From IMG/VR virus record IMGVR_UViG_649989947_000010, positions 1 through 47,812 of that record: a stretch of 47,812 nucleotides of DNA; one strand, 5' to 3'. Source of the stretch: a virus (lineage: Duplodnaviria; Heunggongvirae; Uroviricota; Caudoviricetes). Numbering within the stretch: the stretch's first letter is position 1; each line of letters opens with the position of its first letter. Below, piece by piece: positions 22,189-38,271 of this stretch. Made by a program: the position numbers and the translations under genes. The notes under the pieces are model-generated. The model searched no databases. It saw only the letters and a list, made by a program, of their open reading frames with translations, and was not told the origin of the DNA.

Positions 22189-22767
22189 ATGTTGCGCTTT
22201 ACTGAGGAAGAGTTTCAGGCTTTTAGTGAGCGTCGAAATAAGGGGCGGTCCAGGCCAAAAACCAAAAAGGATCCATTCTTATCGCTTGCGCCGGTAAAAG
22301 AAGTTTCTCCACATGCGAAGGCACTTGCAGCACTGGCAAAGAACCCAGACCTGCGCGACGGAAATTGCGAGCACTTCGAGCAGGTTTTCATTTTTGATTA
22401 CTTCGAACGCAAGCACCCTGACATCTATGAGCTGTTGCATGCAACGCCTAACGGAGGGAAACGTTCAAAAGCAACCGCCGGGAAAATGAAGGCTGAAGGG
22501 CAGAAAAAAGGTTATCCGGACATGAGTCTCGATAAAGCATGCGGTATTTATCACGGCATGCGAATTGAGCTTAAAGAACTAAATGGTAAAGCCCCGACGA
22601 AAGAGCAGATCGCCTGGATGCGCAGGCTTAGAGAGGAAGGTTACTACGTCGTTCTTGCGTATGGTGCAGAACAAGCGATAACCGCCATCCTGGAATACAT
22701 AAGCCTTAAAAAGGGTGAGGCTATTGAGCATGTATTGAACGGCGATAAGTGGTTGCATGCTTCTTGA
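22189..22767 (+). CDS. Putative VRR-NUC-like nuclease
   Basis: C-terminal HATPNGGKRS...GYPDMSL...GMRIELK pattern resembles VRR-NUC. Confidence 0.35.
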   Translation: MLRFTEEEFQAFSERRNKGRSRPKTKKDPFLSLAPVKEVSPHAKALAALAKNPDLRDGNCEHFEQVFIFDYFERKHPDIYELLHATPNGGKRSKATAGKMKAEGQKKGYPDMSLDKACGIYHGMRIELKELNGKAPTKEQIAWMRRLREEGYYVVLAYGAEQAITAILEYISLKKGEAIEHVLNGDKWLHAS

Positions 22768-22833
22768 AATAATAAATTAATTAGTGCATATCCGCTCTTT
22801 GTGATAGTGCGCCTTAACATCGGGAGAATAATC

Positions 22834-22917
22834 GTGTCATCCAAGGTTAATTATGAGTCGCTGGCATCGGTCATGCCGCGTAATGAACAGGAAACAGATG
22901 CTGTAGTGGACCCTGTA
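22834..22917 (+). pseudogene. 5' part of small gene split by the IS10 insertion (3' part at 25406..25478)
   Basis: GTG at 22834 with RBS GGGAGA; frame runs into IS10 outside end; joining across the 9-bp duplication restores a ~52-codon ORF ending TAG 25476-25478. Confidence 0.45.
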
Positions 22918-24246
22918 CTGATGAATCCCCTAATGATTTTGGTAAAAATCATTAAGTTAAGGTGGATACACATCTTGTCATATGATCAAATGGTTTCGCG
23001 AAAAATCAATAATCAGACAACAAGATGTGCGAACTCGATATTTTACACGACTCTCTTTACCAATTCTGCCCCGAATTACACTTAAAACGACTCAACAGCT
23101 TAACGTTGGCTTGCCACGCATTACTTGACTGTAAAACTCTCACTCTTACCGAACTTGGCCGTAACCTGCCAACCAAAGCGAGAACAAAACATAACATCAA
23201 ACGAATCGACCGATTGTTAGGTAATCGTCACCTCCACAAAGAGCGACTCGCTGTATACCGTTGGCATGCTAGCTTTATCTGTTCGGGCAATACGATGCCC
23301 ATTGTACTTGTTGACTGGTCTGATATTCGTGAGCAAAAACGACTTATGGTATTGCGAGCTTCAGTCGCACTACACGGTCGTTCTGTTACTCTTTATGAGA
23401 AAGCGTTCCCGCTTTCAGAGCAATGTTCAAAGAAAGCTCATGACCAATTTCTAGCCGACCTTGCGAGCATTCTACCGAGTAACACCACACCGCTCATTGT
23501 CAGTGATGCTGGCTTTAAAGTGCCATGGTATAAATCCGTTGAGAAGCTGGGTTGGTACTGGTTAAGTCGAGTAAGAGGAAAAGTACAATATGCAGACCTA
23601 GGAGCGGAAAACTGGAAACCTATCAGCAACTTACATGATATGTCATCTAGTCACTCAAAGACTTTAGGCTATAAGAGGCTGACTAAAAGCAATCCAATCT
23701 CATGCCAAATTCTATTGTATAAATCTCGCTCTAAAGGCCGAAAAAATCAGCGCTCGACACGGACTCATTGTCACCACCCGTCACCTAAAATCTACTCAGC
23801 GTCGGCAAAGGAGCCATGGGTTCTAGCAACTAACTTACCTGTTGAAATTCGAACACCCAAACAACTTGTTAATATCTATTCGAAGCGAATGCAGATTGAA
23901 GAAACCTTCCGAGACTTGAAAAGTCCTGCCTACGGACTAGGCCTACGCCATAGCCGAACGAGCAGCTCAGAGCGTTTTGATATCATGCTGCTAATCGCCC
24001 TGATGCTTCAACTAACATGTTGGCTTGCGGGCGTTCATGCTCAGAAACAAGGTTGGGACAAGCACTTCCAGGCTAACACAGTCAGAAATCGAAACGTACT
24101 CTCAACAGTTCGCTTAGGCATGGAAGTTTTGCGGCATTCTGGCTACACAATAACAAGGGAAGACTTACTCGTGGCTGCAACCCTACTAGCTCAAAATTTA
24201 TTCACACATGGTTACGCTTTGGGGAAATTATGAGGGGATCTCTCAG
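22918..24246 (+). mobile_element. IS10 (IS4 family), complete 1329-bp copy
   Basis: Outside end CTGATGAATCCCCTAATGATTTTGG at 22918; inside end ...GGGGATCTCTCAG ending 24246; 402-aa transposase. Confidence 0.95.
23025..24233 (+). CDS. IS10 transposase
   Basis: 402 aa beginning MCELDILHDSLYQFCPELHLKRL, as recalled for IS10/Tn10 transposase. Confidence 0.95.
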   Translation: MCELDILHDSLYQFCPELHLKRLNSLTLACHALLDCKTLTLTELGRNLPTKARTKHNIKRIDRLLGNRHLHKERLAVYRWHASFICSGNTMPIVLVDWSDIREQKRLMVLRASVALHGRSVTLYEKAFPLSEQCSKKAHDQFLADLASILPSNTTPLIVSDAGFKVPWYKSVEKLGWYWLSRVRGKVQYADLGAENWKPISNLHDMSSSHSKTLGYKRLTKSNPISCQILLYKSRSKGRKNQRSTRTHCHHPSPKIYSASAKEPWVLATNLPVEIRTPKQLVNIYSKRMQIEETFRDLKSPAYGLGLRHSRTSSSERFDIMLLIALMLQLTCWLAGVHAQKQGWDKHFQANTVRNRNVLSTVRLGMEVLRHSGYTITREDLLVAATLLAQNLFTHGYALGKL

Positions 24247-25383
24247 AGCTTAACGTTGGCCTGCCACGCCTTACTTGACTGTAAAACTCTCACTCTTACC
24301 GAACTTGGCCGTAACCTGCCAACCAAAGCGAGAACAAAACATAACATCAAACGAATCGACCGATTGTTAGGTAATCGTCACCTCCACAAAGAGCGACTCG
24401 CTGTATACCGTTGGCATGCTAGCTTTATCTGTTCGGGCAATACGATGCCCATTGTACTTGTTGACTGGTCTGATATCCGTGAGCAAAAACGGCTTATGGT
24501 ATTGCGAGCTTCAGTCGCACTACACGGTCGTTCTGTTACTCTTTATGAGAAAGCGTTCCCGCTTTCAGAGCAATGTTCAAAGAAAGCTCATGACCAATTT
24601 CTAGCCGACCTTGCGAGCATTCTACCGAGTAACACCACACCGCTCATTGTCAGTGATGCTGGCTTTAAAGTGCCATGGTATAAATCCGTTGAGAAGCTGG
24701 GTTGGTACTGGTTAAGTCGAGTAAGAGGAAAAGTACAATATGCAGACCTAGGAGCGGAAAACTGGAAACCTATCAGCAACTTACATGATATGTCATCTAG
24801 TCACTCAAAGACTTTAGGCTATAAGAGGCTGACTAAAAGCAATCCAATCTCATGCCAAATTCTATTGTATAAATCTCGCTCTAAAGGCCGAAAAAATCAG
24901 CGCTCGACACGGACTCATTGTCACCACCCGTCACCTAAAATCTACTCAGCGTCGGCAAAGGAGCCATGGGTTCTAGCAACTAACTTACCTGTTGAAATTC
25001 GAACACCCAAACAACTTGTTAATATCTATTCGAAGCGAATGCAGATTGAAGAAACCTTCCGAGACTTGAAAAGTCCTGCCTACGGACTAGGCCTACGCCA
25101 TAGCCGAACGAGCAGCTCAGAGCGTTTTGATATCATGCTGCTAATCGCCCTGATGCTTCAACTAACATGTTGGCTTGCGGGCGTTCATGCTCAGAAACAA
25201 GGTTGGGACAAGCACTTCCAGGCTAACACAGTCAGAAATCGAAACGTACTCTCAACAGTTCGCTTAGGCATGGAAGTTTTGCGGCATTCTGGCTACACAA
25301 TAACAAGGGAAGACTTACTCGTGGCTGCAACCCTACTAGCTCAAAATTTATTCACACATGGTTACGCTTTGGGGAAATTATGA
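24208..25383 (+). pseudogene. N-terminally truncated IS10 transposase ORF with chimeric start
   Basis: ORF starts inside the 3' end of copy 1 and reads across the junction; lacks the first ~27 native codons. Confidence 0.7.
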
Positions 25384-25396
25384 GGGGATCTCTCAG
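24247..25396 (+). mobile_element. IS10, 5'-truncated copy (positions ~180-1329) abutting the complete copy
   Basis: Begins AGCTTAACGTTGGC (equivalent to 23097 of copy 1), ends with inside end at 25396; four synonymous differences from copy 1 in the first ~250 bp. Confidence 0.9.
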
Positions 25397-25451
25397 GACC
25401 CTGTAATCGCTGAAATGAATGCTCGCCTGGAGGCTGAATTTGCAGCTGAGA

Positions 25452-26081
25452 ATGAACATACCACCCAGGGCGACTAGGACTGTTTTTTGTGTCGGTAGCG
25501 GTCCGTCACTCACTCGTGAGGACTGTGCTGCTATAGAAAAAACTGGCTGTTCAATCATCGCGGTTAACAATTCCTGGCAGATGTTCGATGACATTTATGC
25601 CTTATACGCCGGTGATTTGTCATGGTGGAAGCAATACGGTTCCACCATACCGGGAGGGAGGTTCCGCAAAGTGACAGCCAACCTGGCGGCGGCGAAATCA
25701 TTTTCGTTGGAGTACAGGCGATATTGTGGACCGGCGGAAGGGGTAAATAGCGGCGCGCAGGCTATCAGTCTGGCGGCTGAATCAGGGGCTGAAGTAGTTG
25801 TATTAGTCGGCTATGACTGTTCTCTGCAAAACGGCCTTCATTGGCATGGCGCGCACCCTCAAGCACTACGGAATCCAACGCAGGTGTCTATTTCTAAATG
25901 GCAACAGCAGTTCCTGGATACCCGCAAAAAACACGCAGATTTACATATTTTGAATGCAAGTAGGAGCAGTGCAATTCAATGTTTCCCAAGAATAAATTTA
26001 GAGGCAGTGATCGCGTTATTATCGTCGGCAGTGGCCCAAGCGCCGCAAACTTTGTTGCGCCGCGCGGAGTGCCGATTATAG
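25452..26081 (+). CDS. GSGPS-motif Rossmann-like protein, paralog A (sialyltransferase/DUF115-like fold?)
   Basis: VFCVGSGPSL...IIAVNN...VVLVGYDCS...H; paralogous to next gene. Confidence 0.45.
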   Translation: MNIPPRATRTVFCVGSGPSLTREDCAAIEKTGCSIIAVNNSWQMFDDIYALYAGDLSWWKQYGSTIPGGRFRKVTANLAAAKSFSLEYRRYCGPAEGVNSGAQAISLAAESGAEVVVLVGYDCSLQNGLHWHGAHPQALRNPTQVSISKWQQQFLDTRKKHADLHILNASRSSAIQCFPRINLEAVIALLSSAVAQAPQTLLRRAECRL

Positions 26082-26605
26082 CGGTCAATGGGGCCATCGA
26101 CTGGCTTAACCGCGCTTCTTATTTTTTCACACTTGATCCATCGCCAGACAATATGCGGCGCGTTGGTCGTGGCCGCCGTCGCCGTGGTGTTTGTTATTGC
26201 ATGGCACTACCCGATGTTAAAGAACGTGAAGTCAGGGATGGCGTTCTGTGCTTCCGTCGTGTGGCTGAACGCGGCACGGAGCCAAAAAATACGAATTCTC
26301 CCGAGTGGTGGGCGTGGCGCTGGTCCGCTCATTTCGGCCTTTGCGAAGATGAGAATGAAATTGCCAGCGGCAATAGTGCATATGGTGCTCTGAACCTGGC
26401 TTTCCATATCGGATTCAAACATGTAGCCCTGGTGGGCGTTGACGCTACGCAAGAACCACGCGTTCACTCCGGCGGCACGCCAAAAAATCTAAGTCACCTG
26501 CCTTTGTTATTCCAGTCTGCGCGTGAACAGATTGACGTTGTTTCATGCGGGAAAATGGGAGGTATTCCGCAGATGACTCTTAAAGAATGGCTGAAGAATA
26601 CATGA
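25979..26605 (+). CDS. GSGPS-motif Rossmann-like protein, paralog B
   Basis: [10 protein letters not shown]...IIAVNG...VALVGVDAT; overlaps paralog A by 103 nt. Confidence 0.45.
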
Positions 26606-27279
26606 TGGCACCCACAATTTATCACCGTATCGACGGTACCAAATACAGGAATGTCTGGGTTGTTGGTGATCTGCATGGTTGCTACACCAGACTGATGTCC
26701 GAACTCCATCGTGTGGATTTTGACCCGGCGCAGGATTTACTGATATCGGTCGGCGACCTTATCGATCGCGGTACTGAAAATGTCGAATGTCTGGAACTAT
26801 TGCAGATGCCCTGGTTCAGGGCAGTGATGGGGAACCATGAGCGGTTGATGCTCGATGCGTTAAGTCCTGATGGCAACGTGAATAACTGGCTAATGAATGG
26901 TGGACAATGGTTCTTCATGTTGGACACTGATCAGGAAATATTAGCCAGGGCGCTGGTGGAGCTGGTAAGACGTCTGCCCTATATCATTGAGTTGAACACC
27001 GGGCAAGAAACTATCGTTATAGCCCATGCCGACTATCCGGATAATGAATATCAATTCGGTAAGGAGGTGCCGCTTTTCAACGTTGTCTGGGCGCGCGAGC
27101 GTATCAGTGATTCGATGGATGATATTGGTGGCGAAATTTCGGGCGCAGATCGTTTTATCTTTGGTCACACTCCGGTGAAAAGCCCGAAGACATTCTGGAA
27201 TCAGCATTATATCGACACTGGTGCCGTATTTTGCGGAAACCTGACATTGATCAAAGTGAAAGGTGATGGTGCAGCATGA
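26587..27279 (+). CDS. ppp: Ser/Thr protein phosphatase (lambda-phosphatase-like metallophosphoesterase)
   Basis: GDLHG, GDLIDRG, GNHE motifs; near-colinear with recalled lambda PPase; alternative starts at 26602/26605. Confidence 0.85.
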
Positions 27280-27977
27280 AGATTGCTTTAGTTCTTCGCT
27301 CTGGTGGTGACTATAACGCTTCCGATGTGCAGTGGCTGGTTAATCAACTGCCAAAAGGCTATGAAATTATTTGCCTGACAGACCTGAAGCGTTTACATGT
27401 ACCTGGCGTCAAAGTTATCCCATTGATCAACCAGTGGCAAAAGTGCCGTGGCTGGTGGGCGAAAATCGAGTTGTTCCGACCGGATATAACCGATGATCTG
27501 TTCTATCTGGATTTGGACACGGTTATTGCCGGTGATATACGCCCAATCCTTGAGAATCCACCAACCAGCTTCACCATGCTTAGGGATTTTTACCATCCAC
27601 AATATCGTGGTAGCGGTGCCCTGTGGATACCAAATAGTGTAAAAGCGCATATCTGGAGTGCATTCTGGCAAGATCCGGAAGGTTGGATTGCTCGTTGTGT
27701 TACTACTGAATGCTGGGGTGATCAGGGGTTTTTGCGGAAGGTTATGGGTGATGATACACCAGCATTTCAGGATCTGTATCCAGGATGGTTTGTAAGTTAC
27801 AAGGCCGATGTTGTGGAACCTGGTTCAAAATATGCGAGCGCGCGTTACTCCAGGGGGAATGGGACATTACCAAAGGACTGCCGAATAATCTTTTTCCACG
27901 GCAAACCGCGGCCTCGCGAAGTGTCAGAGGATTGGCTTCCCCTCATTAGCTCGTTTTTTGAGCGAGAATCAGAATAA
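27276..27977 (+). CDS. Putative GT-A-type glycosyltransferase (DxD motif)
   Basis: FYLDLDTVI DxD-like motif; start overlaps ppp stop. Confidence 0.4.
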
Positions 27978-27978
27978 T

Positions 27979-27995
27979 ATTGCTCTAATAATTCC
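27979..27995 (+). promoter_or_regulatory. C1 operator-like site (ATTGCTCTAATAATTCC)
   Basis: 14/17 to consensus; immediately after the GT-A-like gene stop. Confidence 0.55.
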
Positions 27996-28002
27996 ATATT
28001 TT

Positions 28003-28034
28003 TAAAACGTGATGTACACTCATCACGTTTTTTA
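28003..28034. terminator. Bidirectional rho-independent terminator
   Basis: AAAACGTGATG-TACACT-CATCACGTTTTTT. Confidence 0.65.
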
Positions 28035-28044
28035 TTAGAGCAAT
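28028..28044 (-). promoter_or_regulatory. C1 operator-like site, inverted relative to 27979
   Basis: Plus strand TTTTTTATTAGAGCAAT, 15/17 to reverse consensus. Confidence 0.55.
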
Positions 28045-29613: not shown

Positions 29614-30120
29614 TTGAGTATTTTCAATAAACACGCACACCAGGAACGTCCGTACATCGTCATAGTAGATATTGATGGGACGATATCAGAGGCAACGGAA
29701 GACAGGCTGCATTTACTTCCACCACCTGGCAAAGGTGCATTAACAGAGCACTGGAACGAGTTTAACCTTGCCTGTGACACTGATGCTCCCATCACTCCAG
29801 TTATTGATATGGTGCGCCAGTTGTCCGGCATTTACACCCTCTGGTTTGTAACCGGGCGCTGTGAGATAGCCAGGGATAAAACACGAGCCTGGTTGCGTAA
29901 GCACGTAACAAACGGGGCTGAGCCTTTGCTATCTATGCGTCCTGCTACCGATGATAGAAATGACGGCCCAGCAAAGATTGATCTCCTTAAGAAAATTGGT
30001 CTAAGTAAAATCGCGTTCGCGCTGGAAGATAAGATTGAAGTGGCGCGTGTTTTCAGGAGTCACGGCGTACTTACGTTAATGGTCAGGGAGTATGAAAACG
30101 CGCTTCTCCATCAACAATAA
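29614..30120 (+). CDS. HAD-superfamily phosphatase/nucleotidase-like protein
   Basis: TTG start with strong RBS GAGGAGGG; VIVDIDGT (DxDGT) nucleophile motif. Confidence 0.55.
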   Translation: MSIFNKHAHQERPYIVIVDIDGTISEATEDRLHLLPPPGKGALTEHWNEFNLACDTDAPITPVIDMVRQLSGIYTLWFVTGRCEIARDKTRAWLRKHVTNGAEPLLSMRPATDDRNDGPAKIDLLKKIGLSKIAFALEDKIEVARVFRSHGVLTLMVREYENALLHQQ

Positions 30121-30314: not shown

Positions 30315-31043
30315 ATGAAAGGCGAAGTGAAAGAGCGCGGCATGATTTTCAACGATGAGATGGTCCGGGCCATCATCGAAGGAAGGAAAACGCAGACGCG
30401 GCGGATAATGAAAAATCAGCCTGCGGAAGTTGGTCCAGAAGCACCAGTGATGGTTAGAAAAATTGGTGCAGGTTTTCAGTGGTACGGGGCTGATGGTGTA
30501 AGCAGTGTCTTCAATTGCCCCTTTGGTATCGTCGGCGATCGAATTTGGGTTCGTGAAACATGGGCGATATTAGGCAATGAGGATGGTTGTAGTGTGGACT
30601 GGAACGACAACCTTTGTCGTGGTGATGAGAAGAACGCAGCAAGGATTTATCGGGCCAGTTGTGAGCAAAAGCCTGGTGATTACGGCTTATGGTCGATACC
30701 CGATGATGCCGACTGGAAACCTCACACTGTGAATGAAAAGTTTGATGGTGGGTGGCGTCCATCAATTCACATGCCGCGATGGGCATCACGCATTCTGTTG
30801 GAAATTACCAACGTGCGCGTTGAGCGGTTGAACGATATCAGCGAATGCGATGCAGGGGCTGAGGGCGTTCCGCCTGCTGGAAGTTTGCTTCCTGATTACC
30901 CGGAAACATTCCTTACTCCCAAGGGGGATTTCGCAATGGCCAAGGTTGCGTTCCAGCGTCTGTGGGAATCCATCTATGGTGAAGAAAGCTGGAACGCTAA
31001 TCCCTGGGTATGGGTAATTGAGTTTAAGCGCATTCAGGAATAA
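30315..31043 (+). CDS. Phage protein, possibly ASCH/PUA-like
   Basis: N-terminus MIFNDEMVRAIIEGRKTQTRR resembles ASCH GxKxxExR-type motif; weak. Confidence 0.35.
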   Translation: MKGEVKERGMIFNDEMVRAIIEGRKTQTRRIMKNQPAEVGPEAPVMVRKIGAGFQWYGADGVSSVFNCPFGIVGDRIWVRETWAILGNEDGCSVDWNDNLCRGDEKNAARIYRASCEQKPGDYGLWSIPDDADWKPHTVNEKFDGGWRPSIHMPRWASRILLEITNVRVERLNDISECDAGAEGVPPAGSLLPDYPETFLTPKGDFAMAKVAFQRLWESIYGEESWNANPWVWVIEFKRIQE

Positions 31044-31052
31044 ACCGTGAGT

Positions 31053-31232
31053 ATGCATCAAGTCGTCAGCTTTTCAGGTGACGGGATTGCCAGAATGTAT
31101 GCCGACAGCGACTACAGAAATTTGTATCAGGCGATGGTGCAGGCCAAGCGGTTTGATACTGGTTCGTGTTCCGAATCATGTGAAATCTGGGGTGACCAAT
31201 TGGAGTTGAAATTCGAAGAGGTTGTGGCATGA
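31053..31232 (+). CDS. Small hypothetical protein
   Basis: ORF in tightly packed operon. Confidence 0.3.
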   Translation: MHQVVSFSGDGIARMYADSDYRNLYQAMVQAKRFDTGSCSESCEIWGDQLELKFEEVVA

Positions 31233-31432
31233 CAATCGTAAAAACCCATACCGGTACCGTGATCACCAAAGATGGCCCGCAGGTAAAAAAACTGCACCAA
31301 ACAGAGCGGATGTGGGTCGTTGGCAAAAACGAGTTTTACCACAAAGAAACTGGACGCCGCCATTTTGCAGAAAATACGCGCCGCCGACTGCTGTTAGACA
31401 CCATCAAGCCTATCGAGGTGAAGCATGTTTAA
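31229..31432 (+). CDS. Small hypothetical protein
   Basis: ORF with overlapping stop/start to neighbours. Confidence 0.3.
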   Translation: MTIVKTHTGTVITKDGPQVKKLHQTERMWVVGKNEFYHKETGRRHFAENTRRRLLLDTIKPIEVKHV

Positions 31433-31664
31433 ACAGAACGAAAAAGCTATCGCTCAAATTGCTGATTATATCCCGCGTGCGTGCCGGGGTATGCAGTTGC
31501 AGGAAGCCAAAGCGCGCCTGGAGAAAAAAATTGCGCTCTATATTGATGACGGCTGTGATGCCGCCGTTCTTAACGAGGCGTTCGCACCAGCTCTTAACAG
31601 TCATACTCGGGAGTCCTTTCTTTCGTGCATCGCAGCGCAACTCCACCAAGGAGGCATCCAGTGA
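31425..31664 (+). CDS. Small hypothetical protein
   Basis: ORF with GTGA overlap to next gene. Confidence 0.3.
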   Translation: MFKQNEKAIAQIADYIPRACRGMQLQEAKARLEKKIALYIDDGCDAAVLNEAFAPALNSHTRESFLSCIAAQLHQGGIQ

Positions 31665-32305
31665 GTAACCGTTTTTACATGATGTGCTTGCGTGAAACTG
31701 TGGGTAATAACGCCTCATTCCATTGCCATAACGGCAATGGTTACAGTTCTGATATCGATCGCGCTCATGTTTACACGCTGGAAGAAGCCCAAAAAGCCTG
31801 GAATTGTGGGCGAGATATCGATCAGCCTGTTTGTGCCGATAGTGTGGATGCAATTGCTGTGTGGCACGTTGATTGCCAGTACATCCCTACAGAAAGCCTG
31901 ATTGAGTCAGATTGCACTGCGTATGTGGCCTACAAAAAAGGTAGCTGGAACGGCAACGATGTTTACTGGCTTCAACACGGTGGATTGCCAACAGATGATT
32001 TCAGTAAAGCGACCATCTTTAGCGTCGCCAACAAAAACGAACCAGGAATAGTTTGGTTGCCATTTCCCATTGCTGATGCAGCAAAGCGCCGGACGTTCAA
32101 TATCAATAACTTTAACCGCAGAACAATGGTTCAGGGCGCAGGTTTGGTCATGCCTGACTGGTTGAAAGAGCAGAACAGAAGAAAGAAGTCGCGAAGCGGG
32201 AAGGTGCGTTGGAATTGTCCGCATTGCGGAAAAATCACCTGGCAGTACAGCCCATATGATTTTGAAGGCTGTAGTGATTACAACTGTGAAGGATGGCGAG
32301 AATGA
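31661..32305 (+). CDS. Cys-rich hypothetical protein
   Basis: GTG start at 31661 with RBS AAGGAGG; C-terminal CPHCG...C..C cluster. Confidence 0.4.
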   Translation: MSNRFYMMCLRETVGNNASFHCHNGNGYSSDIDRAHVYTLEEAQKAWNCGRDIDQPVCADSVDAIAVWHVDCQYIPTESLIESDCTAYVAYKKGSWNGNDVYWLQHGGLPTDDFSKATIFSVANKNEPGIVWLPFPIADAAKRRTFNINNFNRRTMVQGAGLVMPDWLKEQNRRKKSRSGKVRWNCPHCGKITWQYSPYDFEGCSDYNCEGWRE

Positions 32306-32985
32306 CAATTGACTATCAGGTACTGCGCGAGGCGGCGGAACAGGCAACGCAAGATGAATGGGTAGCATATATTTTGCCGGGGCAAAACGGCACTTATCCT
32401 GCGCATACGTCTGAGGGTAGGCATTGCGGATACTTTATTGACTGGCCTGGCATTGATGGACAGAGAAACGCTGGTGCCAATGCCCGTTATATCGCGGCTA
32501 TCCCACCCAAAGTTGTGCTGGCTCTACTGGATGAAATTAAGCGCCTGGAGGACACAAATATTGATGCTATGTGTCGAATTGCAGAGCTTGAGACTAATCT
32601 CGCGGCGCTGGTGGCGGAGAATGTGGGGCTAAAGGCGATATGTGATGACCGTCGCAGGTTCATCATGAATGGGGTGCAGATGGGTTATATCAAGGTGCCA
32701 GCAGCGGAAACAGATCCAGACCTTGAGACAATTCGCATTGCTATATCACCACAAAAGCCCATTCCAGCCACTGATGCTTTCCTGTCTGAAGTGCGGGCGC
32801 AGGGGGTGGATGCTGCTATAGAAGCTGCAAAAAATCTGGTGGTCCAAGAATATGAGTATAAGGATTTCAAAGCGGCGCAGAGTGATTGCTGTATGCACCC
32901 TGGTTCAGACCTGGTAGGGAAGGTTGAAATGACTGAGTGGTTAGTTGACTTTGCTGCCCAGCTTCGCAAAGGAGGCAACCAGTGA
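32293..32985 (+). CDS. Ea22-like early protein, paralog 1
   Basis: N-terminus DYQVLREAAEQATQDEW shared with next gene (DHQALREAAEQAMHDDW). Confidence 0.45.
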   Translation: MARMTIDYQVLREAAEQATQDEWVAYILPGQNGTYPAHTSEGRHCGYFIDWPGIDGQRNAGANARYIAAIPPKVVLALLDEIKRLEDTNIDAMCRIAELETNLAALVAENVGLKAICDDRRRFIMNGVQMGYIKVPAAETDPDLETIRIAISPQKPIPATDAFLSEVRAQGVDAAIEAAKNLVVQEYEYKDFKAAQSDCCMHPGSDLVGKVEMTEWLVDFAAQLRKGGNQ

Positions 32986-33557
32986 GCAAAATTGACCATC
33001 AGGCACTGCGTGAGGCGGCAGAGCAGGCAATGCATGACGACTGGGGATTTGACGCGGACCTTTTCCATGAGCTGGTAACACCATCGATTGTGCTGGAACT
33101 GCTGGATGAACAGGAAAGAAACCAGCAATACATCAAACGTCGCGACCAGGAGAACGAGGATATTGCGCTAACGGTAGGGAAACTGTTAATCGAAAACGGT
33201 CAGCTTGTTGCCGATACGCTACGCCACTTAGCTGATAACGAAATCGACTCTGATTATTTTGCTATCACCTCAACGAATGAGAACGGTACTGAAATTGATC
33301 ATGAGATGGCTATTACCGATTACGCACTGCAAGCTGCCGGAACTGTAGACGAATTGGTTGCAGCGCTGGAATCCGCAGAGAAGCGCATAGCAGAACTGTC
33401 TGCTAGCCACAGCAAATTGCGCGACACAATGGCTGGCATCCACAACACAATCCGAATGGATGGCGGATATACGCCACTGACAGCAATCCTTAACGCTGCT
33501 AAACGCGCATATGAAGAATCAGCAAGCGCAGCTGGCATTCGCATCAAAGGAGAGTGA
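32982..33557 (+). CDS. Ea22-like early protein, paralog 2
   Basis: Shared N-terminal motif; coiled-coil middle. Confidence 0.45.
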   Translation: MSKIDHQALREAAEQAMHDDWGFDADLFHELVTPSIVLELLDEQERNQQYIKRRDQENEDIALTVGKLLIENGQLVADTLRHLADNEIDSDYFAITSTNENGTEIDHEMAITDYALQAAGTVDELVAALESAEKRIAELSASHSKLRDTMAGIHNTIRMDGGYTPLTAILNAAKRAYEESASAAGIRIKGE

Positions 33558-33558
33558 T

Positions 33559-34074
33559 ATGGCGTTAACACACCGCGAACTCTGTCAGATTGCGTACAAG
33601 TTCCTTAAGCGCAACGGGTTCAAGGTTTGTTTTCATGACCGCTTTATAGCTGTAACCAGTACCGGAGAACAGCCAGATGCTATGGGATTCAGAAATTCAG
33701 CATCATGCCTGATAGAGGCGAAATGTTCTCGTGCTGACTTGTTGGCAGATAGAAAAAAGCGTTTTCGTAAAAATCCGTCTCTTGGAATGGGAGACTGGCG
33801 ATTCTTTATTAGTGAGCCGGGAATTATTTCAATTGAGGATTTACCACCTGGCTGGGGATTACTTCACGTTGTTAACGGAAGAGTACGGAAAGTACATGGG
33901 TGGCCCAAGGGTAATTGCTGTTGGGGTAATCCTGACGATAAGCCATTTACTGGAAATAAGCAGGTTGAATGCGATTACATGTTATCTGCATTAAGGCGCA
34001 TGGAGTTGAGAGGGCACCTTAATGAAATATATGACGGTGTAATTGTTAATAAGAAAGAAGGAAACGCGGCATGA
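33559..34074 (+). CDS. Putative PD-(D/E)xK-fold nuclease
   Basis: QPDAMGF ... CLIEAKCSRADL gives PD...(E)AK arrangement; RBS AAGGAGAG. Confidence 0.35.
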   Translation: MALTHRELCQIAYKFLKRNGFKVCFHDRFIAVTSTGEQPDAMGFRNSASCLIEAKCSRADLLADRKKRFRKNPSLGMGDWRFFISEPGIISIEDLPPGWGLLHVVNGRVRKVHGWPKGNCCWGNPDDKPFTGNKQVECDYMLSALRRMELRGHLNEIYDGVIVNKKEGNAA

Positions 34075-34478
34075 ACACTTTCACCGACAAAGAATTGATT
34101 AAAGAAATCAAAGAACGTATAGGCAGCCTGGACGTGCGAGACAATATTGAGCGCCGTGCTTATGAAATAGCGTTAGCCTCGCTGGAAGCTGAACCGGTGG
34201 CATGGCAGGTCACAATCACAAAAGACGGCCTGGACTCAGCCTCTATTATTTACCGTGACTGTGCAGAGAAAGATACATGGGTTCGGATACATGAGACACT
34301 TGGTTCTGTCGTACATGTCACCCCGCTTTACATGGCGTCGCCAGTGCCTGTAGTGCCGGAAGAAAAAACAATGCCTAATCCTCTTAGCATGTACGCGGTT
34401 GATGCTGTTGCCGCTATTGCAGAGGTAAGAGGCTGGAATGCCTGCCGCGCGGCTATGCTTCATGGGAAAGGAAAGTGA
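34071..34478 (+). CDS. Hypothetical protein sharing N-terminal module with 34911 gene
   Basis: YEIALASLEAEPVAW vs YKIALASLEAEPVAY in the 423-aa protein. Confidence 0.4.
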   Translation: MNTFTDKELIKEIKERIGSLDVRDNIERRAYEIALASLEAEPVAWQVTITKDGLDSASIIYRDCAEKDTWVRIHETLGSVVHVTPLYMASPVPVVPEEKTMPNPLSMYAVDAVAAIAEVRGWNACRAAMLHGKGK

Positions 34479-34479
34479 T

Positions 34480-34701
34480 ATGGCTAACTCATTACTTGAA
34501 ACCTGCAACAACTGGCAGATTCAGAGGGCGGAGATTTTATCTCGCAATCCAGATATGGCAATGACAATTGATAATCTGGACACGCTAATTGAACGGACCG
34601 TGCGTTCTGCAATTGATATAGCACATCGAGTGGATTGGGATTTCAGAGAAGCGGAGCGGCTTGCTAAAGAGCAGGAGAAAGCAGCGGGTAAAGGAGACTG
34701 A
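34480..34701 (+). CDS. Small hypothetical protein
   Basis: ATG at 34480 overlapping upstream stop. Confidence 0.3.
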   Translation: MANSLLETCNNWQIQRAEILSRNPDMAMTIDNLDTLIERTVRSAIDIAHRVDWDFREAERLAKEQEKAAGKGD

Positions 34702-34702
34702 T

Positions 34703-34900
34703 ATGGATAAAAACACCACTGCTTACTGGAATCTGTCACTTGATACCGAATGCCCAAAATGCGGTCACAATTTCGATCTGCTTTGTGATCCAGATTTCTG
34801 GGAATTTTCTGGAGCAAAACAGGCATGTGAAGAAATAAAAGGTTACGAAACATGCTGTCCAGAATGTAACCATGAATTTAAAACAGATTTTGTGTATTGA
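34703..34900 (+). CDS. Small zinc-ribbon protein
   Basis: CPKCGH ... CCPECNH. Confidence 0.35.
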   Translation: MDKNTTAYWNLSLDTECPKCGHNFDLLCDPDFWEFSGAKQACEEIKGYETCCPECNHEFKTDFVY

Positions 34901-34910
34901 GGCATAACGA

Positions 34911-36182
34911 ATGACCACTTTTACTAAAGAACAATTAATAGAGATGATTAAGCGCAATATAACGATTATGGATCGTTATCCTGATTTAGTAACTGCACAA
35001 ATGGATCTGGAAGTATACAAAATTGCGCTGGCATCACTGGAAGCAGAACCAGTTGCTTATATTTTCAAACATCCGGCCGGGAAATTATTCTGGGCTTTAA
35101 CGGATGAAAGCAATAAAGAGCAAGCGGACGTTATTCCTGTTTATGCTGCCGCGCCTGCGTCGGTTGTGCCGGATAATGCATCAGAGCCTCTTGCTTATGC
35201 TTACAAAGAGCTTACGCCTGAGATTATGCGCAACCATTTAGCTGTATTCGAGCGATATGGAATAGCCCCAAACGATAGCTCTACCACAATTCAGGCACTG
35301 CGAATCGCGCTGGATGGTATAGAGCGGAGCGACGCCATGCTTCAGTCCGGAAACTTTCGGGAAAACAAGAATTCGTCAACCAATAATTTTCGGGAAATCG
35401 CGGAAACGTCAACCAACTATCCGGTAATTCCTAGTGAGGTGTTGTCCGCAATCCTGAAGGTTGCCAAGATTCGTGCCGATTTCGATGATTTTGACGGTGA
35501 CAGGCGAGGTATCGATGATTGTCTGGATGAGGCTGAGCAAGAGCTTATCGTTACCATTAACAAATATGCCAGTCAGTTGGCAGCAGAACCGATAGCGACT
35601 AATGACGTTCGAGAGCAAACAGCCGTTCCGCCAGTTCCGGTAATACAGGCTGATGTCGCGCAGGCAATTGAAAAACTCAAACGGAAATTAGTGGAATGCA
35701 ATCGCTATAACTACTGCGCAGATGCAGTTAAAGGCGTTGAGGATGCCTGCCGTGCTGTTAGCTATAGCCATGCCGACAATCAACCAGCATCTGGCAACCA
35801 GGCAGCCGAATCCAATCGCGGTAATGAGTGGACCGGCAATCCTGATATTGATAACGCCATCATCATGCTCGATCGCATAGATACGCTGGAAAGTTGCGAT
35901 GATGACCGTATTGAGGCTGTTAAGGCTGTTTTGCGTAGACTAGCTGGCAACTCTCCGGTAACTCCGGATGGTTGGATAAGCTGTAGTGAGCGAATGCCGG
36001 ATACCAAAACAGCCGTTCTTGTTGCCGTGGAGTTTGACAGGAAAGGTGACTGGCGAATGAAATGGGCTACTTACATCCCGGGGCATCCTGACGCTAATGA
36101 TGGGTGGATAATTCCTGGTGCGTCGTGGAAACCGTCACACTGGATGCCGCTACCAGAACCGCCGCAGGAGGTGAATCAATGA
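34911..36182 (+). CDS. Hypothetical protein (423 aa) with Ea22-like N-terminal module
   Basis: Shared N-terminal motif with 34071 gene; no recognised catalytic motif. Confidence 0.45.
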   Translation: MTTFTKEQLIEMIKRNITIMDRYPDLVTAQMDLEVYKIALASLEAEPVAYIFKHPAGKLFWALTDESNKEQADVIPVYAAAPASVVPDNASEPLAYAYKELTPEIMRNHLAVFERYGIAPNDSSTTIQALRIALDGIERSDAMLQSGNFRENKNSSTNNFREIAETSTNYPVIPSEVLSAILKVAKIRADFDDFDGDRRGIDDCLDEAEQELIVTINKYASQLAAEPIATNDVREQTAVPPVPVIQADVAQAIEKLKRKLVECNRYNYCADAVKGVEDACRAVSYSHADNQPASGNQAAESNRGNEWTGNPDIDNAIIMLDRIDTLESCDDDRIEAVKAVLRRLAGNSPVTPDGWISCSERMPDTKTAVLVAVEFDRKGDWRMKWATYIPGHPDANDGWIIPGASWKPSHWMPLPEPPQEVNQ

Positions 36183-36262
36183 GCTGGCCTGAAGCATTCA
36201 CCACGGTAGGAATTGTGATGGCGGCAGCACTGGGTTTGTATTCAATTTGTCGCTGGTGGTAA
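36179..36262 (+). CDS. 27-aa hydrophobic peptide, translationally coupled (ATGA overlap)
   Basis: MSWPEAFTTVGIVMAAALGLYSICRWW; RBS GGAGGTG; not in ORF track. Confidence 0.4.
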   Translation: MSWPEAFTTVGIVMAAALGLYSICRWW

Positions 36263-36264
36263 CG

Positions 36265-36498
36265 ATGGGAAAAATAACTTTTGTAGTCGAATTTGAGGAT
36301 GGTAAAGAGCCACCTGTTAGCGCCAATCTTGATGTTGCTGGTGGCAGGCTTGTTTCGGTTCTATTTGGTGACTACCGAGATGATTTCTTCCAACCAGAAG
36401 AAGTTGATGTGGTGCGAGAGGCATTAAACGAGTTAAGTGTTGATAACGATGATGCTCATGCGGAAATCATCCAAAAAATGGAGCTGCTAACTCACTAA
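36265..36498 (+). CDS. Small acidic hypothetical protein
   Basis: ORF 36247..36498 trimmed to internal ATG. Confidence 0.3.
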   Translation: MGKITFVVEFEDGKEPPVSANLDVAGGRLVSVLFGDYRDDFFQPEEVDVVREALNELSVDNDDAHAEIIQKMELLTH

Positions 36499-36546
36499 AT
36501 TATCAATTATGGTGCTATCACCTACGACACCGAGAGAAAATTTATA

Positions 36547-36669
36547 ATGTCAAAAGTAAATGTTTTGATTTTTTCAGCAATTGTTGGCTTTGGTTTTACT
36601 GCCGGAGTGCAGATTTATATTACGTGGGAAAAAATCATCAACTACGCATGGAGTTGTTTTATTAAGTGA
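36547..36669 (+). CDS. 40-aa hydrophobic peptide
   Basis: MSKVNVLIFSAIVGFGFTAGVQIYITWEKIINYAWSCFIK; weak RBS. Confidence 0.3.
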   Translation: MSKVNVLIFSAIVGFGFTAGVQIYITWEKIINYAWSCFIK

Positions 36670-36676
36670 GGTAAGT

Positions 36677-36970
36677 ATGTGGAGAGGTAATAGTCATGGC
36701 AAAAGCCAGATGATACTTACCGAATATCAGCTCGACCACAAAACCAATAAATCACGTTCAGTATATTTGCTTCGCCACAATAGCCGCGTAAGGAATACCG
36801 TACTGGAGCAAAATCTGACCGTTGAAATGGATAATTACGGGGGCTTCAAGCCAACAATATCGCTTGATGATTTTCCTCGTGGTTTAAGCGAAAGAGAAGC
36901 AATGCTGAAATTAGCAGAATGGCTACAAAGATTAAGCATTGCTATTGAAGATAACTGGTCTGAACCTTAA
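36677..36970 (+). CDS. Small hypothetical protein
   Basis: ATG at 36677 with RBS GAGGTAAG. Confidence 0.35.
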   Translation: MWRGNSHGKSQMILTEYQLDHKTNKSRSVYLLRHNSRVRNTVLEQNLTVEMDNYGGFKPTISLDDFPRGLSEREAMLKLAEWLQRLSIAIEDNWSEP

Positions 36971-36976
36971 ATTAAT

Positions 36977-37351
36977 ATGATGACACTAAAACATTTTCTT
37001 GACCGCCCATTATGGGCGGCAGCCGCAGGCTATGACTTTAATTATATGGATTGCATGTCTTATACTGCCAATGCATACGACCATTCGTTCAGCCTGCTGT
37101 TTAATTCTTTAAGAATATTGCCGGAAACAGAAGTTGGAGAGCTTCATTTATGGATATTGGGCTTTATCGCGGCTGTCGTTGGTATTGCTGTATGGCCTTT
37201 TATTTTCTGGCTGGTGGCTGTTGTAGTGTGGTTTAAGTGCAAGACATACCGGAGAAAGTATTTCTTAGGTGATGGAATGACTGATATTGCCAAAATGAAC
37301 ATTGAAAAATGGACTAAGGAATGTGAAAAGAAATGGCGCAAAAAGAAATGA
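36977..37351 (+). CDS. Membrane protein (124 aa)
   Basis: Hydrophobic stretch LWILGFIAAVVGIAVWPFIFWLVAVVVWF, basic C-terminus. Confidence 0.4.
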   Translation: MMTLKHFLDRPLWAAAAGYDFNYMDCMSYTANAYDHSFSLLFNSLRILPETEVGELHLWILGFIAAVVGIAVWPFIFWLVAVVVWFKCKTYRRKYFLGDGMTDIAKMNIEKWTKECEKKWRKKK

Positions 37352-38271
37352 CCAGAATCACTGAAGAGCGTATATCAGAGATTATTTCCCGTATCGAAAT
37401 GTATGGTCACGGTGCTGGATATACGGCAGATGAAGTATTGGCACTTGCCCAAATGGCTTTGGCGGCTTGCAAAGATGATAAAAAAATGAAGCTTATCGAC
37501 TTGTTAGTGAAGGAGCTGCCTAAGTGCGGCGGGTGGCCTGATGGAATGAGTTATTGTTACCTACCCAGTGTCAATTTAATGGCACCATGCGCGACTTTTG
37601 CTTTTGGCTCAGACCACAAAAAAGACACTTTCTTTGGGCGCAATTTTTGTTGTGAGATTGAGCTTCCAATTGGTGACCTTGATAGCGATGAATACCAGTC
37701 AGTTGTCACTCGCGAACAATACGAATCAGCTCTCATAGCGTCGCAGAAAGTCGAGTTCAATGGTGATGAACCTGAAAGTAAGACTTACAGGTTGGATTTT
37801 GGGCAATGGCTGGAACAGCAACGCGGAAAGATCGATGTGGACTGTGGTTGTGTGTCCACTGAAACATTCATGCACTGGCTGCGGGTAGCTTACGAGGCTG
37901 GCAACTATCCGGATATTCCGGATAGTTCGGTGTCAGCGCCAGGAAAGGGCGTCACCGGTGGACGTATCCGCATTAAGCCGCATGTTTATCGCGAACTGGT
38001 TAACCGTCTCCACGATACAGCGATCAAGTGTGCTGGCACCCAGCAATTACGAGAAAGAATTAGCCGTGTTTTGGGCGACGTTATTACGCCAGATCATCAT
38101 AAACAAGCCGAGAAAAGTGGCTTGGAAAGGTGTCACCTTGAGGCGGCATTAAACATTAAGCCGGGGCATACGCTTGGCATTATTGATGCACTATTGGTTC
38201 ATAAGATGGCCAGGGCTTTATTGCCGCTGGTGGCTGAAAAGCATGAGGCGGACCATGCCAACGAAAGCTGA
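37333..38271 (+). CDS. Hypothetical protein (312 aa)
   Basis: ORF in operon; no recognised domain. Confidence 0.4.
   Translation: MAQKEMTRITEERISEIISRIEMYGHGAGYTADEVLALAQMALAACKDDKKMKLIDLLVKELPKCGGWPDGMSYCYLPSVNLMAPCATFAFGSDHKKDTFFGRNFCCEIELPIGDLDSDEYQSVVTREQYESALIASQKVEFNGDEPESKTYRLDFGQWLEQQRGKIDVDCGCVSTETFMHWLRVAYEAGNYPDIPDSSVSAPGKGVTGGRIRIKPHVYRELVNRLHDTAIKCAGTQQLRERISRVLGDVITPDHHKQAEKSGLERCHLEAALNIKPGHTLGIIDALLVHKMARALLPLVAEKHEADHANES

Follow-up and report, generated by a model that had tools for sequence, protein, structure and literature searches.

The 47,812-nucleotide stretch of viral DNA analysed here (IMG/VR virus record IMGVR_UViG_649989947_000010, hereafter the window) contains four overlapping genes. 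To judge by comparison with the sequences of P1 and its relatives, these are almost certainly pmgO, pmgP, ppp and pmgQ, which belong to the pmgN operon of a P1-type phage–plasmid. We propose that three of the four, pmgO, pmgP and pmgQ, probably form a glycan-building module, and that ppp, which encodes a lambda-type phosphatase, is very probably an unrelated, lineage-specific insert, taken up by the P1/P7 lineage at a point between pmgP and pmgQ. Taken as a whole, the reading that we favour has in our view about an even chance of being correct. That the acceptor of the glycan is a protein of the virion, likely of its head, is put forward tentatively.

The match to P1 extends over 2601 bp at 98.5% nucleotide identity by megablast (NC_005856, 79573–82173) and P7 is 97.3% identical, its genes hdmA-hdmB-hdmC-ppp-hdmD corresponding to pmgN-pmgO-pmgP-ppp-pmgQ. 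Synteny takes in pmgM, pmgN, pmgO, pmgP, ppp, pmgQ, pmgR and pmgS, and the flanks are collinear except for an IS10 insertion. Gene order, lengths and overlaps are alike in the window and in the P1 and P7 operons. The window differs from both in that a 2479-bp IS10 composite splits pmgN and in that one base is changed in the −10 hexamer of the promoter PpmgN. The feature is thus the known P1 operon, and both gene identities and functional labels are already present in public annotation: from pmgO to pmgQ, the P1 RefSeq record reads 'alpha-2,3-sialyltransferase', 'norphogenetic protein', 'metallophosphoesterase' and 'glycosyltransferase'. The four genes of the window are:

25419-26081, + strand, pmgO (hdmB): 220 amino acids; DUF115/MptE-like, apparently an accessory paralog of PmgP
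25979-26605, + strand, pmgP (hdmC): 208 amino acids; DUF115/MptE-like, the likely core enzyme of the module
26587-27279, + strand, ppp: 230 amino acids; lambda NinI-type Ser/Thr (PPP-family) metallophosphatase
27276-27977, + strand, pmgQ (hdmD): 233 amino acids; GT8-like, retaining-type GT-A glycosyltransferase (predicted)

A preliminary description of this DNA had recognised four tightly overlapping genes here, and that layout (25419/25452–27977, all on the + strand) is borne out: pmgO and pmgP overlap by 103 nucleotides, pmgP and ppp by 19, and ppp and pmgQ by four (ATGA). Either of two starts is possible for pmgO, as the alternative at 25452 corresponds to Met12 and most homologs begin near Met12. 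The long pmgO/pmgP overlap, together with a natural fusion of the two proteins, suggested a programmed −1 frameshift from pmgO into pmgP, an idea that we set aside; pmgP has its own ATG and its own AGGAG 13 nucleotides 5' of its start. Each of the four proteins has tens to hundreds of homologs, which, with the match to P1, makes the feature more than a product of chance. Hydrophobic segments are absent from all of them, two (PmgO and PmgP) are basic (pI 9.3–9.5), and none of the four matches any of the defence-system models in PADLOC.

The motifs for which PmgO and PmgP were originally singled out are all present: G-S-G-P-S is found at residue 26 of PmgO and residue 17 of PmgP, and IIAVN at residues 46 and 33, respectively. 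The pattern given as VLVG.D is exact for PmgO only, which has LVGYD where PmgP has LVGVD. The two proteins were also described as paralogs, and this holds, though on sequence the relationship is remote: BLASTP aligns just 36 residues (expectation value, E, 0.003), and profile–profile comparison with hhalign gives 98% probability and E 1.3e-13 across 161 columns. Invariant in the PmgO family are GPSL, N50, D66, S111-G112, GYDCS at 131–135, H141 and H143. In homolog alignments, and by sequence position alone, both families have invariant His C-terminal of the G-x-D motif (H141 and H143 in PmgO, H173 in PmgP), which might correspond to His188 of Cst-II, the general base expected of a GT42 enzyme. 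The N-terminal G-S-G-P-S, IAVN and G-x-D motifs presumably resemble those of Cst-type sialyltransferases such as Cst-II.

Evidence for the fold of these proteins comes from structure searches, in which the Maf glycosyltransferase is the best match and three sialyltransferase families match too. PmgP, and PmgO as its paralog, have the Rossmann-like fold of Maf, MptE and Cst-I/II. They share the DUF115/MptE-like fold (PF01973) with the Maf (motility-associated factor) flagellin glycosyltransferases and with the Campylobacter sialyltransferases Cst-I and Cst-II (GT42), at 13–21% identity. At ~200 amino acids, they correspond to the catalytic core, whereas Maf, with 632 amino acids, has flanking domains; no genes for the synthesis of sugars activated with cytidine monophosphate (CMP) accompany them. 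A fused PmgO–PmgP homolog (P0051) scores above the Pfam threshold for the MptE-like family PF01973 (44.6 against 34.6 bits) and many homologs carry a precomputed PF01973 match. Since MAFFT places both paralog families on the same half of P0051, whichever is the larger, PmgP was modelled alone. Searches of PDB sequences with PmgO, PmgP and the PmgO profile gave chance-level matches only, Cst-II appearing at E 0.4–0.7. The sialyltransferase/DUF115 resemblance claimed in the preliminary description is therefore right at the level of the fold, a fold that covers pyrophosphokinases too; at the level of family, P1-type PmgO and PmgP themselves stay below the Pfam threshold (scores are given below).

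PmgQ had been described as a glycosyltransferase-like protein with a DxD motif, and this is borne out. Its AlphaFold model has a mean predicted local distance difference test score (pLDDT) of 94.9, and the top Foldseek matches of the model are almost all enzymes of glycosyltransferase family 8 (GT8): Skp1 alpha-galactosyltransferase, glycogenin, LgtC, GlyE and WbbM, with E from 1e-8 to 1e-6. The DLD motif occupies residues 79–81 and HGKPRP residues 208–213, and D79-L80-D81, H208, G209 and P211 are invariant in 51 PmgQ homologs. PmgQ thus combines the GT-A fold, the DxD motif and the C-terminal His ligand of GT8 enzymes, and shares fold and DxD with glycogenin, LgtC, GlyE, Skp1 alpha-galactosyltransferase and WaaJ/WaaO. 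Its C-terminal H-G-x-P sits where GT8 enzymes have H-x-x-G-x-x-K-P-W, it is shorter than a typical GT8 enzyme, and it compares with GT8 structures at a template modelling (TM) score of ~0.55 and 11–17% identity. The best PDB sequence match is 6MW5 (E 0.08).

To follow the genes beyond P1, we ran profile searches over all open reading frames (ORFs) in one genome per species and in a collection of viral contigs; a first pass through the contigs returned P1-like copies only, and the scan was run again starting from a distant homolog. Strong matches to PmgP were obtained at 49 loci. PmgQ lies no more than 6 kb from PmgP in every locus with enough flanking sequence (45/45), whilst PmgO is found in about 41 of the 49. 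Among contigs that encode distant PmgO homologs, a lambdoid prophage of Citrobacter rodentium (L002) has the order PmgO–PmgP–PmgQ with no phosphatase, and in another phage (L003) PmgO and PmgP form a single 376-amino acid protein, with a PmgQ homolog next in line. Hosts of the module are found in Enterobacterales, Zhongshania, Brevundimonas, Commensalibacter, Methylophilaceae, Sinomicrobium and Longimicrobiales.

Gene fusions tell a similar story. Among 1.84 billion representative proteins searched, there were 556 family clusters, with fusions in the orders PmgP–PmgQ (P0299 and P0369) and PmgQ–PmgP (P0383). One 616-amino acid metagenomic protein (P0348) unites PmgQ-like, PmgP-like and S-adenosylmethionine (SAM)-methyltransferase domains in a single polypeptide, a layout that recalls the chlorovirus capsid-glycan enzyme A064R with its two glycosyltransferase domains plus a methyltransferase. 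PmgO and PmgP are fused as well (P0051). The BFVD database also holds uncultured-phage proteins of 685–700 amino acids that are named MptE-like and contain a PmgQ-like fold. Taken together, the co-occurrence and fusion of PmgP and PmgQ, set beside the rarity of ppp, point to PmgP and PmgQ as the conserved functional pair, with PmgO as a frequent accessory paralog and ppp as independent, so far as sequence can tell.

Further clues come from what else is found with the module. Recurrent additions are SAM/FkbM methyltransferases, a second GT-A enzyme (Nucleotid_trans-like) and a further glycosyltransferase; a single large, AT-rich phage contig adds glycosyltransferases of GT25, GT2 and DXD type. 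These extra glycosyltransferases and sugar-type methyltransferases lend support to the glycan role suggested at the outset, and they make it more likely that the DUF115 proteins build glycans than that they act as kinases.

The location of the module on phage chromosomes is also informative. At eight loci from HK97-like phages, it has the major head protein on one side and the head–tail adaptor Ad1 on the other. Direct scans of the flanking genes cover both sides in L095, L116 and L128 and the adaptor side in L097, whereas L112, L114, L115 and L133 were assigned to this group through shared gene-family clusters. In the last of these, a head-closure-like protein separates PmgO from PmgP. Elsewhere, the module adjoins terminase/portal genes (L096, L108, L113, L117 and L119) or the lysis cassette (L002, L003, L100, L123 and L125). 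All three positions are in late regions, and the phages are unrelated to one another. As a separate observation, in L108, a Sphingomonadaceae prophage, the portal protein encoded beside the divergent module (3362-5224) carries a C-terminal Acb1 domain (Pfam E 6e-42), Acb1 being a phosphodiesterase directed against the cyclic oligonucleotide-based anti-phage signalling system (anti-CBASS).

A different setting is seen in five Pseudescherichia genomes (L089-L093, ~2300-13400 in each locus), where homologs of PmgO, PmgP and PmgQ lie on different strands around the gene for an inverse autotransporter of the invasin type (1213 amino acids, with Big_1 repeats), with further giant Big_1/RCC1 proteins nearby. 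Of the ORFs scanned at these loci (14.6 kb), none was recognised as a phage gene. This adhesin context hints at a protein acceptor, and the Pseudescherichia copy may be a domesticated module that glycosylates adhesins.

The phosphatase gene of the operon, ppp, behaves quite differently. Ppp is a PPP-family Ser/Thr phosphatase of the lambda type, just as the preliminary description had it: it matches lambda protein phosphatase (1G5B) with E 5e-95 over residues 11–229, is 60–65% identical to it over the full length and has GDLHG, GDLIDRG and GNHE motifs at residues 27, 56 and 82, all three PPP-family motifs being common to Ppp and lambda NinI. Its Metallophos score is 59.1 bits (threshold 21.5 bits) and it matches PHROG 246 ('NinI-like') with E 1e-113; it falls below the NCBIfam cut-offs for E. 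coli PrpA (279 against 326 bits) and PrpB (240 against 332 bits). Whilst ninI belongs to the nin region of lambda, ppp sits inside a transferase operon, but only in 9 of the 49 loci, all of them P1/P7-like; the module lacks it in 40 of 40 loci of other types. More distant P1-like phage–plasmids have pmgM, pmgO–pmgP–pmgQ and pmgR–pmgS with no ppp. Conversely, the ppp of phage D6, 90% identical, is surrounded by quite different genes and is not accompanied by pmgO, pmgP or pmgQ.

Two neighbours of the operon may be mentioned here. Two genes downstream of pmgQ, pap (29614-30120) encodes a second phosphatase, with a HAD_PNKP domain (E 3e-11). Upstream, PmgM (22189-22767) has a sub-threshold VRR-NUC match (18.5 against 23.8 bits) and is labelled VRR-NUC in RefSeq. 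Both pap and pmgM are conserved with the transferase module only inside P1-like elements.

How might such a module work? PmgP and PmgQ would act as an obligate pair on the same acceptor. PmgQ would be a minimal GT8-like GT-A enzyme using a nucleotide-diphospho-sugar, and PmgP, with the fold of Maf and Cst (GT42), would belong with enzymes that transfer CMP-activated nonulosonic acids. PmgO, the methyltransferases and the further glycosyltransferases would be accessories that vary between phages, and ppp need not join in this chemistry. As the proteins are soluble and, in P1, are made only after C1 repression is lifted, we infer that the acceptor is cytoplasmic and is modified late, in which case a short glycan would be built directly on it late in infection, most likely on a protein of the virion head. 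If the DUF115 enzymes use a CMP-sugar, the donor would be CMP-3-deoxy-D-manno-octulosonic acid (CMP-Kdo), to our knowledge the only CMP-sugar donor known in E. coli K-12. Chemistry, donor and acceptor are thus all inferred, as is the polar effect of IS10 described below.

Four lines of evidence suggest a virion acceptor: the position in the head gene cluster, the Maf-like enzyme, the adhesin context in Pseudescherichia and the precedent of two mycobacteriophages, Che8 and Rita, with glycosylated capsids (Freeman et al. 2023, cited in PMC11256854). As in Che8, Rita and the chlorovirus PBCV-1 with its A064R, soluble glycosyltransferases would then be supplied by the virus itself, in some cases together with a methyltransferase, and growth would not depend on them. 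The enzymes come from different families, the hosts of the module are Gram-negative and the module is known from its genes, so that the resemblance is one of logic and not of membership. The broadest form of the proposal, in which PmgP and PmgQ (with PmgO) are a widespread, unrecognised virion-glycosylation system of Gram-negative phages, P1 included, with a glycan that perhaps contains host Kdo, is possible but rather doubtful.

Several observations weigh against a virion-directed glycosylation module. Neither PmgO (23.4 bits) nor PmgP (20.9 bits) reaches the 34.6-bit Pfam threshold for MptE-like PF01973, and PmgQ has no Pfam match, Glyco_transf_8 (PF01501) included, for which a homolog gives E 0.31. 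The virion acceptor rests on gene position, and the late lysis and terminase regions also hold unrelated accessory genes. The basic character of PmgO and PmgP would also suit binding to membrane or DNA. Enzymes of GT8 and GT42 type are the classic lipo-oligosaccharide (LOS) toolkit as well, as with LgtC and Cst-II, and all the hosts seen are Gram-negative, which suits a lipopolysaccharide (LPS) acceptor as well as a CMP-Kdo donor. Our literature searches found neither a functional characterisation of the pmgO–pmgQ proteins nor a report of P1 virion glycosylation, and we know of no such report. Searches on DUF115 in phages and on capsid glycosylation found no paper on this module, and the main text of a P1 virion proteome paper does not mention these genes.

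Envelope remodelling is the first alternative to consider. Here, the target of the module would be the LPS/LOS core, or some other glycan linked to lipid, on the cytoplasmic side of the inner membrane, with PmgQ acting like the GT8 core transferases (WaaJ, WaaO and LgtC) and PmgO and PmgP like enzymes that transfer Kdo or sialic acid. The LPS core is where P1 adsorbs, and the effect would be to mask this receptor against superinfection or against loss of progeny on debris. PmgQ matches LgtC and WbbM, among others, in structure and also aligns weakly with E. coli WaaJ over the DxD and C-terminal motifs (39% in hhalign). Basic PmgO and PmgP, a module beside the lysis cassette in several phages, exclusively Gram-negative hosts and, at one locus, a GT25 neighbour of the 'LPS biosynthesis' type would all fit. 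A 'faint' precomputed match of P0051 to Pfam WaaZ_KDO_III would fit too, but this similarity failed on profile comparison: hhalign against E. coli K-12 WaaZ gives 16% for PmgP and 12% for PmgO, and direct Pfam scans gave no WaaZ match. Head genes on both sides, the major head protein and the head–tail adaptor, would be unexpected for an envelope function, and the Pseudescherichia copies lie among adhesin genes, not LPS genes. Enzymes made late would presumably act on new LPS alone, with little change to the surface before lysis. Nor would lysogens be converted, the P1 operon being repressed by C1, so that the surface conversion of lysogens raised in the preliminary description is improbable for P1, all the more so as other phages have the module among late genes for structure or lysis. 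We consider envelope remodelling in the lytic cycle to be unlikely, though the most probable of the alternatives.

A second alternative is phosphotransfer. Were PmgO and PmgP to be ATP (adenosine triphosphate)-dependent (pyro)phosphokinases like MptE or thiamine pyrophosphokinase, they would, together with PmgQ, make a phosphorylated sugar or a capped glycan. In phages that add a methyltransferase, the cap could be a methyl-phosphate of the kind made by WbdD; Ppp and Pap might be connected with this in P1. The matching Pfam family is named for MptE, a PmgQ–PmgP–methyltransferase fusion exists, and two phosphatase genes, ppp and pap, lie in or next to the P1 operon. Against these stand the Maf glycosyltransferase and the three sialyltransferase families as structural matches, and the presumably Cst-like G-S-G-P-S, IAVN and G-x-D motifs, with a profile match of PmgO to Cst-II of only E 0.4–0.7. 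The invariant acidic residues that could serve Mg-ATP are few (D53 and D155 in PmgP), and the phosphatases are not conserved with the module. Phosphotransfer is therefore, in our judgement, improbable.

A third possibility, proposed in the preliminary description, is that all four proteins serve one glycan or nucleotide modification route, with Ppp, for example, dephosphorylating an intermediate or regulating the transferases. Translational coupling of ppp on both sides (the 19-nucleotide overlap with pmgP and the ATGA shared with pmgQ) would make sense in such a pathway, and P1, P7, SJ46, RCS47 and a Pantoea phage–plasmid all share this layout. Outside P1/P7-type loci, however, ppp accompanies the module in none of the 40, including P1-like phage–plasmids with the same flanks; D6 and lambda have the phosphatase without the transferases; and lambda protein phosphatase, to which Ppp is so similar, acts on phosphoproteins. 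A single four-gene pathway is thus very unlikely.

Finally, DNA hypermodification for restriction evasion, or glycosylation of host proteins in the course of takeover, is less credible still: lytic-cycle expression, soluble and basic DUF115 proteins and a module that adjoins terminase/portal genes in some phages would be compatible with it, but no hydroxymethylase, TET-type or other base-activating enzyme lies beside the module in the loci examined, the structural neighbours of PmgQ are protein- or glycan-directed GT8 enzymes and not DNA glycosyltransferases, and P1 DNA is readily cut by restriction enzymes, P1 relying instead on its Dar proteins. Phage glycosyltransferases that decorate DNA are known (bioRxiv 10.1101/2023.12.21.572611), and DNA modification had been among the functions first suggested for this operon; we found no evidence for it here.

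In the P1 annotation, the transcription unit begins with the small gene pmgN, preceded by a predicted sigma-70 promoter, PpmgN, with the C1 operator Oppp just downstream; a late promoter lies further upstream. The corresponding features of the window are:

22735..22790, + strand: promoter PpmgN and C1 operator Oppp, positions carried over from the P1 annotation by alignment
22834..22917, + strand: 5' part of pmgN, first 28 codons, cut by IS10, the frame continuing into IS10
22918..25396, + strand: IS10 composite, 2479 bp, delimited by self-BLAST, comparison with P1, end sequences and transposase ORFs
25406..25477, + strand: 3' remnant of pmgN, overlapping the start of pmgO
27979..28044, + strand: end of the operon, with the C1 operators OpmgRa (27979-27995) and OpmgRb (28028-28044) from the P1 annotation

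Within PpmgN, the −35 element TTGAAC is at 22735-22740 and the −10 element at 22756-22761, with Oppp at 22774-22790. The first base of the −10 hexamer (22756) differs from P1, giving CATGCT in the window against TATGCT. Eight of the differences between the window and P1 in this alignment fall in 22756-22813, one of them at the edge of Oppp.

The composite consists of a complete IS10 (22918-24246, 1329 bp), with its outside end to the left and the transposase on the + strand, and a second copy directly abutting it (24247-25396) that comprises IS10 positions 180–1329 and so lacks the first 179 bp, in which the outside end, the promoters and the beginning of the transposase coding sequence lie. 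Over 1150 bp, the copies share 99.65% identity. The composite as a whole is flanked by just one 9-bp target duplication, GACCCTGTA (22909-22917 and 25397-25405). The insertion is within pmgN and ends 22 bp before the pmgO ATG, in line with the early remark that the four genes sit right after an IS10 tandem. The junction was absent from all records of the phage and plasmid collections searched, and the tandem arrangement could be either a real rearrangement or an assembly artefact.

As the composite stands between pmgO–pmgQ and their promoter and operator (PpmgN and Oppp), it is likely to have a polar effect that reduces their expression. The outward promoter of IS10 presumably points out of the outside end, i.e. 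away from pmgO, and a promoter consensus scan found no site upstream of or between the four genes, the sole weak match lying inside pmgQ (27861-27889). Judged from this arrangement, pmgO–pmgQ are probably poorly expressed in the window element. This would fit with the dispensability of these genes: knockdown by CRISPR interference (CRISPRi) in P1 indicates that all four are non-essential, with plaque formation undisturbed (PMC10695390). The preliminary description had taken the absence of any phenotype as one thing that would tell against its reading; for laboratory growth, where no plaque defect is seen, that is partly the situation.

At the other end of the unit, pmgQ is followed by a terminator-like hairpin with a U-run (28004-28031, −13.4 kcal/mol, z −4.97). 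The operators OpmgRa and OpmgRb, which precede pmgR, form an inverted pair bracketing this hairpin, so that one unit would be terminated, and the next repressed, within the same 66 bp.

Further downstream, ~6.9 kb of the window (31010-37889) are missing from the corresponding position of the P1 reference, where the pmgT–pmgV region is variable. This segment is a mosaic, partly common to 813R1 and SJ46, and pieces of it match several hundred phage records, among them many phages that carry Shiga toxin genes (Stx-converting phages).

The pmgO–pmgQ genes are among the many 'putative morphogenetic' genes of P1 that have never been given a role. What is added here is a testable hypothesis: that PmgP and PmgQ are the heart of a conserved glycosylation module, that the phosphatase stands outside it and that IS10 is probably silencing the module in this element. 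The genetics of P1 make both the virion and the LPS readings easy to test. If the LPS were remodelled, this would be a new kind of receptor masking, one confined to the lytic cycle. If instead the virions are glycosylated, capsid glycosylation would be extended from mycobacteriophages to phages of Gram-negative bacteria, a standard laboratory phage among them, and the glycan would change how the particles are recognised by antibodies, surfaces and host debris, with a bearing on both immune recognition and phage engineering.

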